From contig CAVVUN010000009.1 of assembly GCA_963751455.1 (NCBI GenBank), forward strand, positions 224,001 through 288,000: a stretch of 64,000 bases of DNA, given 5' to 3'. The stretch's first letter is position 1, and every line of letters begins with the position of its first letter. A model generated the notes under the pieces. That model ran no database searches. It was given only the letters and a program-made list of their open reading frames with translations, and was not told the origin of the DNA. The position numbers were made by a program, and so were the translations under genes. The stretch comes from Nitrospirota bacterium (GTDB taxonomy: Bacteria > Nitrospirota > UBA9217). Positions 56,626 to 64,000 of this stretch are shown here, piece by piece.

Positions 56626-57015
56626 CTAATCGGATTTGACTACGCTTTTCTGCTGCAAGGACTTGAAGATCATATCGAGAACGTCCTTTTGTTTTCCCTC
56701 AAACTTGTTCAGCACAGCCAGGCAGCTTCCCATGGGAAACCGCTGATGCAGATAATCGGCATCGCGGCCTGAAAGGATAATGATCCGGTTCTTATTGATT
56801 CCCTTTGATGTGGCATACGAGAGAACTTTTCCGCCGTCAAGGCCGGGCATTTCAAGATCAACCAGCAGGAGGTCGAGGTCATTCGTGATCAATACGAGGC
56901 ATTTTATAGGATCATTGCAGGTGATAACATCAAGTCCCGGATAACGCTCCTCAACATATTCCTCAAGAATTCTTGAGAATGCCGGATCATCGTCGATTAA
57001 TAAAATCTTTCCCAT
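56626..57015 (-). CDS. Single-domain response regulator
   Basis: ILLIDDD, VDLEMPGLDG, ILSG, LNK. Confidence 0.85.
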   Translation of the reverse strand: MGKILLIDDDPAFSRILEEYVEERYPGLDVITCNDPIKCLVLITNDLDLLLVDLEMPGLDGGKVLSYATSKGINKNRIIILSGRDADYLHQRFPMGSCLAVLNKFEGKQKDVLDMIFKSLQQKSVVKSD

Positions 57016-57074
57016 GAGTGGTTCCTTTTAAAAAGAATGGCTAAGCAAGGGGCAATGTACTACTTTTGTATTCT

Positions 57075-57340
57075 TTAGGCAAGTATAATTAGAGCGAAGG
57101 CAGGAACTGCGAGGATCAAAGAGGATGCGGCCCACCACTGCGATTCAGGGTCGCTGCTCTTTCTTCTTTTTGCGGCAAGAATGGCGGCAGCAAGGCCGGC
57201 GAGGACACTGGCAAAGGCGATCACGACCGCGACCAATCCGCGCATGCGGCAAGTGAGCACATTGCCGGGATTGCGACCACGACAAAGAAGACAGTCGGTG
57301 AAACAGCGGGCAGTAGTATGTGTCGGATGAGAGGGGACAT
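57075..57340 (-). CDS. Small hypothetical membrane protein (frameshifted)
   Basis: Hydrophobic ORF pieces; probable ATG at 57340. Confidence 0.45.
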
Positions 57341-57419
57341 ACGTAACCCTTCAGAGGGCGGCTTTAACGCACGGGTGGACCGGCCGGTGAGCATTTTTGT
57401 ACGGCCTGTGCCTTTGCTT

Positions 57420-57569
57420 CTTTGTGTTATGAAAAGCGAACACGTAATCAGGCCATTCAGGCCGTGAAAGAATTCGGTGGGAACCGGCGGTTTATCGTTT
57501 GATAGACCAGCCGATATGAAGGAGTGCCGTCAGGACGTTACGGGCTTTGGAGGAGGGCCATTGGCTCAT
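57420..57569 (-). pseudogene. hicA: HicA toxin pseudogene
   Basis: Manual translation MSQWPSSKARNVLTALLHIGWSIKR*TAGSHRIL..PDYVFAFH; premature TAA and truncated 3' end. Confidence 0.75.
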
Positions 57570-57766
57570 GCAGGCAGCGCAAAAAGCTCATCAAGTTCGG
57601 GAATGTTCTCCCCGTGATCCAGCCGATCTGCTATGATACGCAGTGCCAGTGCTTCAACTTTGGCAATTGCTTCTTCTCGTGTCTTTCCGTAAGCTAAAAC
57701 ACCCGGAAGATCAGAAACCTCGGCAATCCAACGACCATCTTCTTCTTTTTCAATATCTATCTTCAT
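57566..57766 (-). CDS. hicB: HicB-family antitoxin
   Basis: EEDGRWIAEVSDLPGVLAYGKTREEA; ATGA overlap with hicA. Confidence 0.85.
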   Translation of the reverse strand: MKIDIEKEEDGRWIAEVSDLPGVLAYGKTREEAIAKVEALALRIIADRLDHGENIPELDELFALPA

Positions 57767-57878
57767 TCTATTCTCCTCTGATGATAAATTTATCTGAATA
57801 TGGCGCTGATTGCAAGTCTAAATTTATCGTGGGCGGAGCGGCTTTTACACCTGGCTCGATCCGGATGAGACGACAAAA

Positions 57879-58460
57879 TTACGATTTAACCGCATAAGTT
57901 CCCTTGGGACTTAATGCACGCTTGTAATCTGAAATCGAGTGATATCCGTTCGCCGCAAGAATCAGGTCGTAACGCTGCCCATTTTGGGTGAAATCTTCTC
58001 TGGTGTAATCAATGACCTGGTCTGCGCCAATCGAGCGCACCATATCCAAATTCCTCGTACTGCACACGCCAGTCACTTTAGCTCCGAACGATTTGGCAAT
58101 CTGTACCGCAAACGTACCAACACCACCAGACGCACCATTAATCAAAACCTTTTGCCCTGGCTGAATCTGTCCTTTATCGCGAAGACCATGTAGGGCGGTG
58201 ACTGCCGCCACAGGTACGACCGCTGCTTCCTCGAACGATATATTGGCCGGTTTCAACGCCAATGCATTTTCACGGCACATACATACTCGGCAAAACCGCC
58301 CAAACCGCACTCGAATAAGTCCCCGAATACCTCATCACCCGGCTGAAACTGCCTTACGTTTCTGCCTACTACTTCCACCCGCCCCGCTATGTCAGATCCG
58401 AGTATCTTGTATTTTGGTTTTAGAAGCCCAGAGTGCAGGCGGGCCAAGAACGGGTCAGTT
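57879..58460 (-). pseudogene. Internal fragment of an NAD(P)-dependent MDR oxidoreductase
   Basis: ILGSDIAG.VE, INGASGGVGTFAVQIAK; both ends missing; bounded by a REP at 58462. Confidence 0.8.
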
Positions 58461-58612
58461 GGTAGGTTGGGTAGAACGAAGTGAAACCCAACGCTTTTTA
58501 GTTTTCAGATTACTCACCAATTGCCGAAACATTAAATCTGTCGGGTTTCGCAGCAGCTCTACCCGACCTACGAACTAATTTGTCAACATCAAAGATTCGA
58601 CCCCATGACCAC

Positions 58613-58669
58613 GCATGACCACGTTAATCACCTTGTCCGATGTCAAGGGCAATCACTTTCTTGTTACGT
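58613..58669 (-). other. Degenerate integron attC site after the 991-aa cassette
   Basis: Minus strand ACGTAAC ... CCTTG/CAAGG hairpin ... GTCATGC (GTT changed to GTC); GTAAC is complementary to this cassette's start GTTAC. Confidence 0.5.
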
Positions 58670-58682
58670 TATTCTTACTACA

Positions 58683-61658
58683 TTAATTCTCAGGCTTCTT
58701 GACTGCTAAAAAATGAACGCCAGGTTCTGGCGGCACTAACCACGCGCCAATGGCCTCACCCTCTGTTGGTTGATAGCGATATGACTGGTGAGATTGAGCT
58801 GATGCCCCAATCTTCCAGCCATAACCCATCGATTCAAGCGTAAGCAACGGAGAAAACACGGCGTCATCTGTATCAACTAGACTGCGTCCGTTAAGATGGA
58901 ACGGGGCAATGCCTACTTGAGTGGCTTGTTCAGCCGCCGATAAGTTTCTCTTGCTTACCAGAGTGACATTTCGAGCGCGGAGTGATTTTAGCGCATCTGC
59001 TATTTCAAATTCCAATGTCTTAGGCGACTGTTGGAGACCATTTGCTTTTATGTGGGTTGTTTTACTTAACAGCAACCTTCTCATATGCAACAAATCGACC
59101 TGGGATTCGTTAACAAAGTCAAAGAGAATATTTAGTGGAATGTCACGCGAGTAAGGAAGCAACCCAATTTCGATATACGTTTGCTGTTCATTTTGAATTG
59201 CCGGAATGCAATTGGCCGCCTCGGTAAGTAATTGCTCCATAACTCCATGACCAGGACTTACACAGCCCACTCCTGAAGCAGGAACCAGAAGGAACTTTCC
59301 ACTCGCTAAAAAAGATTTCGCCTCAGTAATGAGAAATTTCATAACATCATTGGGCAACCATGAAGCATACCCCATCGCCATAAAGCGATGTCGTCCCGTT
59401 TTCGATTTCAATTCAGACCCGAGCGTTAATAGGTACCCAGCACCCCAAGGCCCAAACCAATTTCCATCGACCATGTGAAGAAACTTTCCAGATTTGGTTG
59501 GTCCTTTCCACAACAATAAGGTGAAATCTGCATATAAAGACCACAGTCTAAGCGCCTGCCTGATGTCCTCCAGTGATCGCACTTCGATTGTTACATTCAA
59601 TGAGTGTGGAAACGCTTGCAAGTTTCGGAGAATTTGTGCAAAGCAACCGCGGCCCCAATAGTCATAATCGAGCGCTGCCGCATTATAGTCATCTGCGGTA
59701 TCTTCCCACCATTTGACAACAGGGGCTACGGTCAATGCGTTTGCCTCATGTAAACTTAAAATGGGTTCTTCGCTAGGGTTTTCTATTTCTGAATCGCCAA
59801 GATAACGAGAAAAGCCTCTCGCTCGTTCAAGGGTCTCCTTAAAGACGTTTGGCCCTTGTCCTATGAGCGATATGTCAATTATTCGTTTGCGAAGTTCGAT
59901 GTTTGCTTCGACCCGCTTTATATAGTTTTCCTTGATTTTGCATAGCTTTTCATCTTCAGTCAAGCATTCGCCCAATTTAGTCATTGCGCTTTGAAGGCTA
60001 TCGTTCTGTCCGAGCTGTGAAGAATAATTAGCGATCAATCCTAATATTTCTAAATGAATATCCATTGGCACACTAATGCGCCCGGCAACCAAATGATATG
60101 CTTCTTGCGCCAATTCTAAAGCACGCTCAGTTTGCCCTTTGTCTGCAAGTGCCTCTGCCAAATTCATCTTAGCCATAAAGGAAGAATCGACCTCGGAGGC
60201 AAGATCTACGGCTATTTCAGCTTTTTCCACAGCTGTAGCTAAATCGCCTAACTGCCGCGAGATCACAGAAACCAACTGTGTAGTAGCGAACGTAATAGGC
60301 TCAGTCTCTGGTGACACAGCAATGTTCAAGAGTGATTTTGCTTTCTGTAGCGCCTCCTCAAGTCGTCCAGCTTGAAAGTTAACCAAAGCCACCGTGTAAA
60401 GTACGCCGGGTAGAAAGGCCTTACGTGTATCTGTTGAAACTTTGTCAGCTAAACGCAATGCCGCTTCAGACGCGGCTACTGCTGTACTATGACGTTTGGC
60501 GTGTGATGAATTATTTGCAACATTAATCAATTGCCCTGCAATACGCAGGGAGAGAAAGCTGTTACGCGCCGAAGCTTCCAACTCATGAATTCGAGATATA
60601 GCCGCATCTTCATCGCCTGACTTCACTGCCCAGTGAATCCCAGCGTTAAGGGCTGCTTGAAAAACCTCACCGTCAAGCATATCGGGATTGCGCTTTGCAT
60701 ATGTCTCAGCTAAGTTGAGATGCTCCTCGGCCTCACTAGAGCGGTTCGCATTGCACAGAAGATGTACGTACTCTGAACGGGCGACGCATAGTTGTTCGTC
60801 ACAACGCTCGATATTTGCAGGTAGGCTGGCCAATGCAATTGCTTCCAGATATGCAGATTCGGCCCCGTGAAAATCGCGCTTTTCCTCTAGATACGCACCA
60901 CGCGCTCGATGGTACATCACTAAAACGGGCACTTCCGTAATATCTTTATGCAAGGACTCAAGCCGTTGAAAGTAATATCCGCGATCACCTATGCCACCTC
61001 GGGCAGACGAAAGTAAGGATAGGCCAATTAGTACTTCAGCCTGTAAATGGACGAGCTTCTCAGTCTCAGCTATCACAAGTGCCTCTTCCATTGCCTCAAA
61101 TGCCTTACGTCTTTTGTCTTGATTGGCTAGTTCGGTCGCTCGCTTCAATAAAGAGCGTATTTTTGACTCAATTTGATTTGGCGATTTGGAAATTCCAAAT
61201 AGAGAAGATAGCTTCTCCGTCGTTAATTTTTCCAGTCGTTCCCATAGACCGTCAATTCCAAGGGCCTCGACACGAACGTCTGGGTTCACAGCGCTCAGCC
61301 GCGCTAATGTCTTTGCTGTAAGGTGCCCAACCTTGCCATCAGCGCTATTGTGAATAAACGTCCATACTTTGAGAGAACTACCAAGAGTGTCTTTTGCCTT
61401 ATTGAAGTCGGCTGCGACCTTGGAGGCCGTGCTACTATCAGTAGTGAGGCTAGGCGGGGCATAGAGTTGATAAACTCTTCCTTCTTTCAATGCCAACCCG
61501 TCGATGCCACCATCACCTCTTGTTACACGAATTGCCAAGAAGCAGTCTTCGCCGTGAAGAGCAATCGCAATTTTTTCAAACCAGTTTTGGAAGGCTTCCC
61601 CGTGAACACTGCGGAACTCTTCTCGATATTTAAGTTTAATGCCTTGTTCTAAGTCCAT
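58683..61658 (-). CDS. 991-aa protein: N-terminal restriction-endonuclease-like domain, TPR-like array, unknown C-terminal domain
   Basis: AFQNWF...GDGGIDG...YQLYAP...WTFIHN; about 420 aa of Ala/Glu/Leu-rich helical repeats; GGAG/GCGG upstream. Confidence 0.7.
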   Translation of the reverse strand: MDLEQGIKLKYREEFRSVHGEAFQNWFEKIAIALHGEDCFLAIRVTRGDGGIDGLALKEGRVYQLYAPPSLTTDSSTASKVAADFNKAKDTLGSSLKVWTFIHNSADGKVGHLTAKTLARLSAVNPDVRVEALGIDGLWERLEKLTTEKLSSLFGISKSPNQIESKIRSLLKRATELANQDKRRKAFEAMEEALVIAETEKLVHLQAEVLIGLSLLSSARGGIGDRGYYFQRLESLHKDITEVPVLVMYHRARGAYLEEKRDFHGAESAYLEAIALASLPANIERCDEQLCVARSEYVHLLCNANRSSEAEEHLNLAETYAKRNPDMLDGEVFQAALNAGIHWAVKSGDEDAAISRIHELEASARNSFLSLRIAGQLINVANNSSHAKRHSTAVAASEAALRLADKVSTDTRKAFLPGVLYTVALVNFQAGRLEEALQKAKSLLNIAVSPETEPITFATTQLVSVISRQLGDLATAVEKAEIAVDLASEVDSSFMAKMNLAEALADKGQTERALELAQEAYHLVAGRISVPMDIHLEILGLIANYSSQLGQNDSLQSAMTKLGECLTEDEKLCKIKENYIKRVEANIELRKRIIDISLIGQGPNVFKETLERARGFSRYLGDSEIENPSEEPILSLHEANALTVAPVVKWWEDTADDYNAAALDYDYWGRGCFAQILRNLQAFPHSLNVTIEVRSLEDIRQALRLWSLYADFTLLLWKGPTKSGKFLHMVDGNWFGPWGAGYLLTLGSELKSKTGRHRFMAMGYASWLPNDVMKFLITEAKSFLASGKFLLVPASGVGCVSPGHGVMEQLLTEAANCIPAIQNEQQTYIEIGLLPYSRDIPLNILFDFVNESQVDLLHMRRLLLSKTTHIKANGLQQSPKTLEFEIADALKSLRARNVTLVSKRNLSAAEQATQVGIAPFHLNGRSLVDTDDAVFSPLLTLESMGYGWKIGASAQSHQSYRYQPTEGEAIGAWLVPPEPGVHFLAVKKPEN

Positions 61659-61740
61659 CCGCTCTCCATGACGTATTTAGTCTATACATCTATACTGTAA
61701 AAAGCGCTTCAACGCTAATGTTCATCGTCAGCACAGGGAG

Positions 61741-61799
61741 GGGTAACATGCGGATGTGGGGCGTGATTCTCAACGACCCTTACGATCCGCTTGTTATGC
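61741..61799 (-). other. Integron attC site (59 bp)
   Basis: Minus strand GCATAAC-aagcg-GATCGTAA...CCACATC-cgcat-GTTACCC. The opposite strand folds with an extrahelical G, and the upstream gene's TAA stop lies in R''. Confidence 0.85.
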
Positions 61800-63581
61800 C
61801 TGCTCGATAAATAGCTCTGAACCTCTTTTTATAGATCGGTTGAACATAATACCGATCTCGCCGGAATGAGCCTCGTCAACGCTTTTATCGTCTATTTGTA
61901 TAGACTTCACAACAGCTACCGCGTAGCTTGAATTCTTTTTTACAATTATCTTCATGTTTCTTGTGATATGAATTCTATTGATGTTTTTTACGATCGCAAT
62001 TTTCCCATCCTGATAGTATTCTTCGGGAACGCCAATGGAAATAAGGTTTTCGGGTTTTAATTCAATTAATCCCACTTGAAACAATTTATTGCGGACATGT
62101 TCCTTAGTTATTATGCCGTCTTCAACCATGAAGTATGCTTTGTACAACTCAAAAGTTGTTAATAGGCCACGCTTATCCAAAAGCGCATCTCCTATCTGGA
62201 CGTCTGAAAAAGGAGGATTAAGCCTGCTGTGAGGAGGTATATAACGCTGATGATTAACTATATACAGCCCAAAAACATCAAACCGATTTCTCTGCTCGGC
62301 TCTTCGAAATCTAATTTTGGATATCTGTGAGCAATCCTTGTCTGTGGATGTGCCACTGATGCCCTTAACCTCGATAACAAGAAGTCCTTTTTCATTTTCT
62401 ACTTGCAAATCCTCTTCCTTAATTTCTAATTCCAACTCGTCCATGTTTACGACGGATTCAAAGCCTAACCAGTTAAGAAAATATTCGACTGCCTTTACAA
62501 GCTTATCGCCGGTTTCAAATATAAGTTCATGAAGAAAGTGATATTTAATTCTATTTTCACTTAGCAATCTATCCAAATCATGAATATCTTTTTGATATTT
62601 CTCTTCGAGATTTTTCTTAGCCTCAATAAGGGCATTTTCACCAGGGAGTAAATATTCTCCACTTTTTAGCCATCCGAATTGACCATGAAATGGAAACAAT
62701 TCTGGGTAAATTTCGGGAAGATAAACGTTGAGTAGGTCAGAAAGAAATTTTCCCTTATTCTTGATATCGGGAAAAACTAAAATCAATCCTTCGTCATAAA
62801 AGTGACTAAAACTAATTATTTCCCCATTATCATTGACTAACAATGGCAAGAAAGATTTCATTTTCACATTCTTTCCATCTTTCCATTCTGTCGGATGGGA
62901 AAAAACTATATTATAGGTTGAGCCATCCAGATATTTTTCAAGAAGTGGAGACAATTTAGTCTCACTCTCCGGAAGTTTTATTTTATTACCAGACTTATTT
63001 TTCGAGGATGGTAAGCCACTATAGAAATCAAGATTTGAATATTCTTTTTCGCTCGTAACATTAGCATAACGGTCATTAATTTCTACGAATTGATAAGAAA
63101 CGCTCTCTTCTTGAGGAGAGAAGCATATGACGACAGACTCTTTTTTTAGTATTTCTGCAATTTCTTTGGCGATGACATAAATAGACAGAGGCCTCGGATC
63201 GAAAATCGTTTGCGGATATTTGCAAAGTAGAGCATGTGCTTTTTTGTCCTTTGTTCGGTCTATGCTGTGATCATTATCTTTATACTCAATACTTTTCTCT
63301 CTAGTCATATCAAAAATGACTATGTCAAACTCGTGAAGATTTGCAGGAATTCGATAATTGAGCAATAAGAAATGTTCAGAATGGCGTTCGTTATTTGGAA
63401 CTTTTACGCAGGTTCCGGTACTTGCCACCTCATGCTTAAAAAGGTTTGAACTTAGAAGCTTCGAGACGTCATCATCAGTATCAAATAAACATATCAATGG
63501 CCTTTCATGAGGAGATGCGCTTTGAACCTGAGCATCTTTTATTGTTCCCAAAGTGTCTTTCTTTTTTTTCGTTTTAAACAT
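61794..63581 (-). CDS. 595-aa protein: unknown N-terminal domain, coiled coil, PD-(D/E)XK nuclease, C-terminal EF-Tu-domain-II-like beta-barrel
   Basis: LGF...EEDLQV...VIEVKG; tail VKSIQIDDKSVDEAHSGEIGI; AT-rich. Confidence 0.7.
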   Translation of the reverse strand: MFKTKKKKDTLGTIKDAQVQSASPHERPLICLFDTDDDVSKLLSSNLFKHEVASTGTCVKVPNNERHSEHFLLLNYRIPANLHEFDIVIFDMTREKSIEYKDNDHSIDRTKDKKAHALLCKYPQTIFDPRPLSIYVIAKEIAEILKKESVVICFSPQEESVSYQFVEINDRYANVTSEKEYSNLDFYSGLPSSKNKSGNKIKLPESETKLSPLLEKYLDGSTYNIVFSHPTEWKDGKNVKMKSFLPLLVNDNGEIISFSHFYDEGLILVFPDIKNKGKFLSDLLNVYLPEIYPELFPFHGQFGWLKSGEYLLPGENALIEAKKNLEEKYQKDIHDLDRLLSENRIKYHFLHELIFETGDKLVKAVEYFLNWLGFESVVNMDELELEIKEEDLQVENEKGLLVIEVKGISGTSTDKDCSQISKIRFRRAEQRNRFDVFGLYIVNHQRYIPPHSRLNPPFSDVQIGDALLDKRGLLTTFELYKAYFMVEDGIITKEHVRNKLFQVGLIELKPENLISIGVPEEYYQDGKIAIVKNINRIHITRNMKIIVKKNSSYAVAVVKSIQIDDKSVDEAHSGEIGIMFNRSIKRGSELFIEQA

Positions 63582-63617
63582 TTTATCAAACCTCTATCAA
63601 CAATTTGCTCCGATAAC

Positions 63618-64000
63618 GAGTCTGTAGAAAAAGTCATTTTGCGAGAGATCTTTTTATCGCATCTCGTCTTTGATCCAACCTGTGTGCTCAGATTATCGGT
63701 TCGTTTTGATGATCTGCTTCGTGAGTGCCCCGGTTTCTATTCGGGTTGCCTTTCATTTACTGCTTTTTTGCTGCTCTTAACCATGCTTCTCACGCAAACC
63801 CCGGCCCGTATCGATGCACCTTCAGAAGATTGTGCACAATGCAGTAGAGCCGCCACTGGATGCTCACCTTCTTTTTCCCTCTGAGACTGAATCGATCCAG
63901 GCCGAGACTGGAACGGATGTCGGCAAAGACGGGTTCGACCGTCGCCATCCTTCTTCCATAGATCAGCTTGCCCGCTACCGAATCTATCTTCTCCCGCATC
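63618..64000 (-). mobile_element. 3' end of an IS1182-family element (transposase C-terminus at 63790-63999) abutting a cassette GTT core
   Basis: YGRRMATVEPVFADIR..LGLDRFSLRGKKKV..QWRLYCIVHNLLK; minus-strand end GACTTTTTCTACAGACTC directly followed by GTTATCG. Confidence 0.85.

Follow-up and report, generated by a model that had tools for sequence, protein, structure and literature searches.

What is the function of a protein that appears to join a nuclease to the beta-barrel of a translation factor, and what does the barrel contribute? The question is raised by an open reading frame (ORF) of 595 amino acids in a Nitrospirota bacterium (UBA9217; assembly GCA_963751455.1), near the end of a 64,000-nucleotide stretch of contig CAVVUN010000009.1 (positions 224,001 to 288,000; the whole stretch is the window). 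Probably the gene is a single-gene anti-phage defence that has not been described before, and where its relatives occur suggests its role in phage defence. The explanation we tentatively prefer, at a probability of about 0.45, is a stand-alone anti-phage DNase that is off until infection and carries the barrel as a portable sensor. The protein has the following parts, from the ORF call and fold prediction, with GATase standing for glutamine amidotransferase.

61794..63581, minus strand: ORF of 595 amino acids, with a predicted GATase-like domain, long helix, FokI-like nuclease and EF-Tu-domain-II-type barrel
62685..63509, minus strand: class I GATase-like (ThuA / IFT52-N-like) domain, residues 25-299, conserved motif P79, N81, H83, E84
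62544..62639, minus strand: long coiled-coil-like helix, residues 315-346, joining the N-terminal domain to the nuclease
62058..62543, minus strand: FokI-like PD-(D/E)xK nuclease, residues 347-508
62409-62411, 62370-62372 and 62364-62366, minus strand: predicted catalytic D391, E404 and K406 of the nuclease domain, which also has the invariant N443 and R453
61797..62048, minus strand: EF-Tu-domain-II-type beta-barrel, residues 512-595, from a barrel lineage that HEPN domains carry as well

The GATase-like, nuclease and barrel folds are all predicted by modelling. At that level the original prediction, which had read a PD-(D/E)xK nuclease and an EF-Tu-domain-II-like barrel from this one ORF and had recognised no named system in it, was borne out on both counts. 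The whole protein had no match in Pfam, PADLOC 2.0 or NCBIfam (E ≤ 1), nor by sequence in the PDB, and profiles of the whole family and of each domain gave nothing in the PDB better than E > 0.1. Ten further family members and three barrel-less relatives were also without a match in PADLOC (E ≤ 1e-4), a library that dates to 2023 and has later-described systems outside it. In the ESM Atlas the whole protein fell into unnamed clusters only, and the barrel into a translation-factor-like cluster at a sub-threshold score (0.76). No description of the architecture was found in the literature, mostly open, where the supplementary tables of large defence catalogues may list the family.

The modelled nuclease has the restriction-endonuclease core fold of the PD-(D/E)xK superfamily and is the most conserved part of the protein, with a mean top-residue frequency of 0.62, against 0.38 in the N-terminal domain and 0.41 in the barrel. 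D391 and K406 are each present in 118/118 sequences of the family alignment and E404 in 116/118, the other two having D. The best structural matches are the DNA-cutting FokI and BspD6I, which suggests that the substrate would be DNA. No PD-(D/E)xK nuclease of transfer RNA (tRNA) was among the 50 fold matches listed, a result that leaves room for kinship to such tRNases. Relatives of 406-514 amino acids from Fusobacterium and Streptomyces lack the barrel and keep the N-terminal domain (judged from tblastn coverage and by eye), the helix and the nuclease core. The sister nucleases are encoded at three loci, here given by our locus numbers.

L111:2314-3858: barrel-less sister nuclease, 514 amino acids
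L113:2227-3681: barrel-less sister nuclease, 484 amino acids
L112:2323-3543: barrel-less sister nuclease, 406 amino acids

None of these three has a Pfam or PADLOC match. Their neighbours encode a KAP NTPase, DUF4238 and a helicase, and the L113 copy lies amid DUF4238 and DEAD-helicase genes.

The N-terminal domain has a predicted class I GATase-like alpha/beta fold. Class I glutamine amidotransferases use the catalytic cysteine of a Cys-His-Glu triad, and no cysteine is conserved at ≥75% in residues 25-299 across the 118 aligned sequences. An enzymatic GATase role was rejected because of this lack of a conserved cysteine. The domain appears instead to be a non-catalytic regulatory or oligomerisation domain.

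The modelled barrel matches the shape of domain II of translational GTPases on superposition, EF-Tu being one of several fold matches tied for best, and a weak Pfam GTP_EFTU_D2 signal is present in 8/91 family barrels (best E 4e-4). These likenesses favour the earlier idea of a decoy, in which the barrel would mimic EF-Tu domain II so that a phage protein aimed at translation factors binds it and unleashes the nuclease; EF-Tu is, moreover, a documented target in phage defence, in type IV Thoeris (PMC13434031). The sequence relationships argue against it. A profile of the 91 barrels, run unfiltered over the 40,984 six-frame ORFs of the host genome, matched only two small stand-alone barrel proteins (E 3-4e-7) and missed seven translational-GTPase ORFs (two EF-Tu copies, SelB, IF2 and three others, names assigned by eye). 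Identity of the barrel to host EF-Tu domain II is 17% (15-17% when SelB is included), to stand-alone barrels 19% and to HEPN-fused barrels 20%, so that it is no closer to host EF-Tu than to other barrels. The EF-Tu surface is highly conserved, and a mimic would be expected to be so too, yet only the fold-core residues of the barrel are. A tree was built from 99 rows and 86 columns (46 of the 91 family barrels, 19 HEPN-fused, 31 stand-alone and one TrhO-like barrel, with host EF-Tu and SelB), in which the 65 nuclease-fused barrels, family and HEPN-fused together, lie on one side of a branch with support 100/97. The best trees set the family barrels apart from EF-Tu/SelB, but a tree forcing them together was not rejected (approximately unbiased test, p-AU 0.289, 38-row subset). 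An EF-Tu decoy is, in our judgement, weakly supported and improbable. A decoy of the stand-alone barrel would be unlikely too: searches of five other host genomes, and of 401 genomes from the phylum of a Pseudomonas host, turned up no stand-alone barrel. The barrel is likely a swappable sensing or targeting part.

No phage-encoded look-alike of the barrel was found in BFVD at E ≤ 0.001, the top rows being mostly giant-virus GTPases. A search for short barrel-only homologues gave 14 proteins of 53-154 amino acids, probably remnants of the family gene. Ten large plasmids of Pantoea agglomerans carry only the 3' fifth of a homologue (nuclease end and barrel), mostly annotated as a small hypothetical protein, which is either a remnant or a freed barrel.

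Barrels of this type have several other homes. Stand-alone barrels are conserved in the host's family (48/60 genomes); their Pfam GTP_EFTU_D2 matches are weak only, and no description of this group of small bacterial proteins was found in the literature. The two stand-alone barrel proteins noted are at L109:1186-1752 (plus strand) and L110:1486-1794 (minus strand), with relatives at L145-L173, and one of the two in the host has a long Lys/Ala-rich, histone-like tail reminiscent of the tRNA-binding tail of Pbp11. The profile also finds U32-like and TrhO-like enzyme tails. Rhodanese/UPF0176 (TrhO-like) proteins of Bacteroidota (L120:1489-2847, minus strand; L201) end in a barrel of the same type, as do the U32 proteins of that phylum.

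The barrel is also carried by HEPN proteins. In 251 cyanobacterial genomes the profile matched in 23, at 25 places, of which 17 are full-length proteins of ~355 amino acids with an RNxxxH-type motif before the barrel; two of these proteins were tested and both are RiboL-PSP/MAE_28990 HEPN. Of the remaining places, two are GTPase-like proteins, five are fragments or short frames, and the family gene makes up the rest. Upstream of one HEPN-barrel gene is a gene that matches Menshen NsnA (E 1.7e-64) and PD-T4-2_A, and the samples around a Pseudomonas genome and a Flavobacterium genome each gave one further NsnA-like/HEPN-barrel pair. The other 28 loci of the Bacteroidota sample comprise 27 that look U32-like (two confirmed) and one that looks TrhO-like. 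The pairs are arranged as follows.

L119:1492-2547, minus strand, and L175:6342-8576, minus strand; also L122-L144, L176 and L177: NsnA / PD-T4-2_A-like gene, then RiboL-PSP/MAE_28990 HEPN-barrel protein

The HEPN-barrel protein itself has no PADLOC match, and the pair is a candidate defence system in its own right. Menshen and PD-T4-2 are DUF262 systems (PMC12065111). A table of PMC3710099 gives a 'novel beta rich domain', its fold unnamed, fused to MAE_18760 HEPN, and this domain may be the same barrel.

The case for phage defence rests on the distribution of the family. At least 753 homologues were found among 7,996 scored candidates, and the family comprises 1,025 clusters at 50% identity (E ≤ 0.001); 97 places were confirmed in GTDB genomes and 80 kept. 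Hosts include Proteobacteria, Bacteroidota, Cyanobacteria, Firmicutes and others, plus one Methanosarcinales (archaeal) genome. The occurrence is patchy: the host genome has one copy, a sample of 250 further genomes from the host's phylum did not show the fusion, and two Klebsiella homologues had no blastn match in 5,426 E. coli genomes. The G+C content of the gene is below that of its flanks in 72/75 loci (median -8.7 points), and in the window it is 0.36 for the ORF against 0.50 for positions 1-57000. In 4/19 IMG/VR loci the gene lies between P2-like gpA and portal genes, and the P2 gpA-gpQ site is a documented defence hotspot (PMC9122126, PMC9519451). It adjoins a phage repressor in L016, L023 and L081, directly follows pifC and a P-loop NTPase gene on a Klebsiella plasmid, and is on seven plasmids, one copy being flanked by IS1; another is in a phage-plasmid. 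Neighbours include AriAB-, type IIG restriction-modification-, DRT-like reverse transcriptase-, ApeA- and PD-T4-10_B-like genes, an anecdotal list that comes from an uncontrolled PADLOC scan of 133 hand-picked ORFs. No neighbour is conserved across the 79 genome loci, the commonest shared one being an integrase (11 loci), and no antitoxin or immunity partner is conserved across them. Nor does a conserved cognate methyltransferase accompany the gene; the only loci with a C5 methylase next to it are the related pair L072/L076.

In the window the gene has the anatomy of an integron cassette, with an attC-like hairpin at its 3' end and a core site upstream, and without an adjacent integrase or attI. 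Integron cassettes often carry anti-phage genes.

61741..61799, minus strand: attC-like hairpin overlapping the stop codon, a putative integron-cassette recombination site
63611..63617, minus strand: GTT-starting core site upstream of the gene, 5/7 bases as expected for the cassette's own core site
63622..64000, minus strand: terminal part of an insertion sequence with a two-ORF transposase, continuing past the window
58683..61658, minus strand: TPR-containing protein of 991 amino acids, the next gene of the same array

The hairpin folds on the bottom strand at -15 kcal/mol (z -5.32), and 0/200 shuffles were as stable. In the family at large, attC-like 3' ends, called with our own heuristic and no curated attC model, occur at 7/78 homologous loci and at 4/412 control ORFs (p=4e-4). 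The insertion sequence, which we take to be IS1182-like, lies between the cassette and the attC-like site that belongs to the next gene upstream. An integron integrase (TIGR02249 above cut-off) was found on contigs C1 and C2 only, with none near the gene on its own contig, C9. The gene appears to be a cassette in an array remnant that has no integrase. No tRNA gene was present in the 70 kb scanned around it. The 991-amino-acid protein has central TPR repeats and no family match beyond TPR, and its N-terminal segment presumably resembles a nuclease domain; its linkage to the gene is not conserved in homologous loci and it is not part of the system. The degenerate array spans ~57000-64000 and continues to about 292000 of C9 (L174). 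It includes a HicB-like gene (57566-57766), then a frame with an early stop that we take to resemble HicA, a broken zinc-dehydrogenase-like gene, a lipoprotein-like cassette of 293 amino acids with a clear attC-like site, and a protein of 247 amino acids with an RNxxxH HEPN-type motif.

Taken as an anti-phage DNase with a sensor, the protein would work in the following way. On sensing infection, its predicted FokI-like domain would cleave DNA. In uninfected cells the enzyme would be held off, since neither a methylase nor an immunity gene is conserved alongside it. The oligomerising or regulatory scaffold would consist of the GATase-like domain and helix, and the barrel would recognise the trigger, either a product of the phage or an RNA altered by infection. 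The barrel is likely a swappable sensor borrowed from small tRNA-associated barrels, not a copy of EF-Tu. A stand-alone DNase with a sensor barrel is suggested because the nearest nuclease structures cut DNA and because the core exists without the barrel. That the barrel senses is suggested because it serves two unrelated effectors, the FokI-like nuclease and HEPN, and that it is swappable because related barrels occur on HEPN-type RNases. Its fast divergence (28% mean identity among family barrels) and its mean net charge of ~0 (range -6 to +6) are what a variable sensor leads one to expect. Single-gene phage defence is in turn indicated by the cassette anatomy, the P2 hotspot, the PifA-adjacent relatives and the low G+C content.

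Several observations weigh against this explanation, some from the genomic neighbourhoods and some from the barrel. Near/far tallies were made by hand, with the two nearest ORFs on each side as near and ORFs ≥7 kb away as far (150 of 187 available ORFs, from the same islands, a conservative control). Defence genes make up 22/287 near and 7/150 far (p=0.31) and mobile-element genes 24/287 and 8/150 (p=0.33), neither difference being significant. A recognisable defence or mobile gene is among the two nearest on each side at only 29/79 loci. Other copies stand alone among housekeeping genes, such as the pyr operon and thrC. Of the copies at the P2 hotspot, L086 and L098 seem to be closely related, and that in L085 is split. 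As to lone copies without a visible mobile element, L020/L024 lie between hemB and a gene for a transketolase/pyruvate dehydrogenase-like protein, and L033/L043 and L038/L059 lie in a pyrimidine operon and beside thrC. Of the original prediction of a defence effector, the role itself stands as likely, from the cassette anatomy, P2 hotspot and prophage and plasmid cargo, and the enrichment in defence islands proposed as its check was not significant.

The same neighbourhoods bear on the possibility that the gene is not anti-phage, and acts on plasmids or other incoming DNA or is a selfish or addiction gene, its cargo positions reflecting mobility alone. The non-significant defence enrichment, the many copies alone between housekeeping genes, the seven plasmids with their IS1-flanked copy and the lack of PADLOC matches are all compatible with this. 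Its recurrence at the P2 gpA-gpQ hotspot, at repressor-adjacent prophage sites and beside pifC and its NTPase speaks against it, as does the lack of a conserved antitoxin partner. We regard a function outside phage defence as improbable.

On the side of the barrel, it is retained in 98% of aligned positions and so is not dispensable within the family, and all its other homes found here are RNA-linked. The two tRNA-end columns are partly kept, which favours an RNA target: in a sequence alignment of distant proteins, the column at position E259 has Q32/K10/R3/H1 and that at R288 K30/N5/G5/R2 of 46. The tree that separates the barrels from EF-Tu/SelB rests on 86 columns, with bootstrap unsettled and long branches that meet. 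RNA targeting by the barrel is plausible from its tRNA- or RNA-linked homes elsewhere. In its fullest form the protein would be a self-contained tRNA-targeting nuclease. Its barrel would hold the acceptor ends of tRNA in the manner of EF-Tu domain II and hand them to the PD-(D/E)xK domain, shutting down translation in infected cells and doing alone what some contact-dependent growth inhibition (CDI) toxins do by hijacking EF-Tu. Pbp11 binds tRNA (PMC9540759), the U32 and rhodanese families include tRNA hydroxylases (PMC6599085), and both PD-(D/E)xK tRNases (PMC9086364) and EF-Tu-using toxins (PMC5737660) exist. The nuclease itself speaks against this, with DNases as its best matches, no tRNase among the 50 listed and the same core kept in the barrel-less sisters. 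So do the near-zero mean net charge of the barrel and the loss of the acidic E259, and the barrel of Pbp11 showed no tRNA binding when it lacked its N-terminal tail (PMC9540759). A tRNA-targeting nuclease is the main rival of the DNase with a sensor barrel, less likely than that but likelier than a function outside phage defence. About as probable as this rival is a conflict-specific barrel lineage, shared by the FokI-like nuclease and HEPN RNases, that reads tRNA 3' ends and either delivers tRNA to the nuclease or reports infection-damaged or uncharged tRNA; if true, bacterial immunity would have a module for monitoring translation that had gone unrecognised.

Comparison with known systems sets the family apart. 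The type IIS cleavage domain of FokI and BspD6I is the best match of the nuclease, but here no FokI-type recognition domains were among the matches, there is no conserved methylase partner, and the nuclease is flanked by the GATase-like domain and the barrel. Unlike domain II of EF-Tu, eRF3 and SelB, the barrel has no G-domain. An isolated barrel outside GTPases is found, as here, in Pbp11 (PDB 7ANU; PF0907, 4PGO), in the bacterial stand-alone proteins and at the C-termini of U32 and rhodanese proteins, and the bacterial isolated barrels are the nearest non-conflict sequence relatives of the family barrel. The stand-alone barrels, however, are conserved housekeeping genes, whereas here the barrel is nuclease-fused on a patchy mobile gene. 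A related barrel ends the HEPN proteins found here, whose nearest described counterparts are HEPN proteins of the MAE_28990/MAE_18760 type (Anantharaman 2013, PMC3710099, whose main text has no mention of EF-Tu) and the DUF262-led systems PD-T4-2 / Menshen; the HEPN system has two genes, in contrast to the one-gene PD-(D/E)xK protein. As far as the cited text goes, the closest that the literature comes to such a defence protein is CoCoNuT CnuH (PMC10542128), in which an EF-Tu-domain-II-like barrel is inserted in the UPF1-like helicase of an McrBC system of several genes; here there is no helicase or McrBC partner. The CDI tRNase toxins (NC101, EC869, 1026b, E479) are a precedent both for PD-(D/E)xK tRNases and for nucleases that reach tRNA by way of EF-Tu domain 2, but they are secreted, inter-bacterial, accompanied by immunity genes and dependent on host EF-Tu in trans, whereas the present protein has neither a delivery domain nor an immunity gene.

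The family is a real, undescribed variant of the single-gene defence nucleases with a testable new module. It is a large family without a name, present in many bacterial phyla and in one archaeal genome. Defence nucleases that act as single proteins are common, and the signals that switch them on are mostly unknown. The barrel is common to the FokI-like nuclease family and to a second, HEPN-based system, and one barrel on two unrelated nucleases could show whether it sets phage specificity, as a sensor, or the substrate, by tRNA targeting. With either role, a group of small bacterial barrels would gain its first function.
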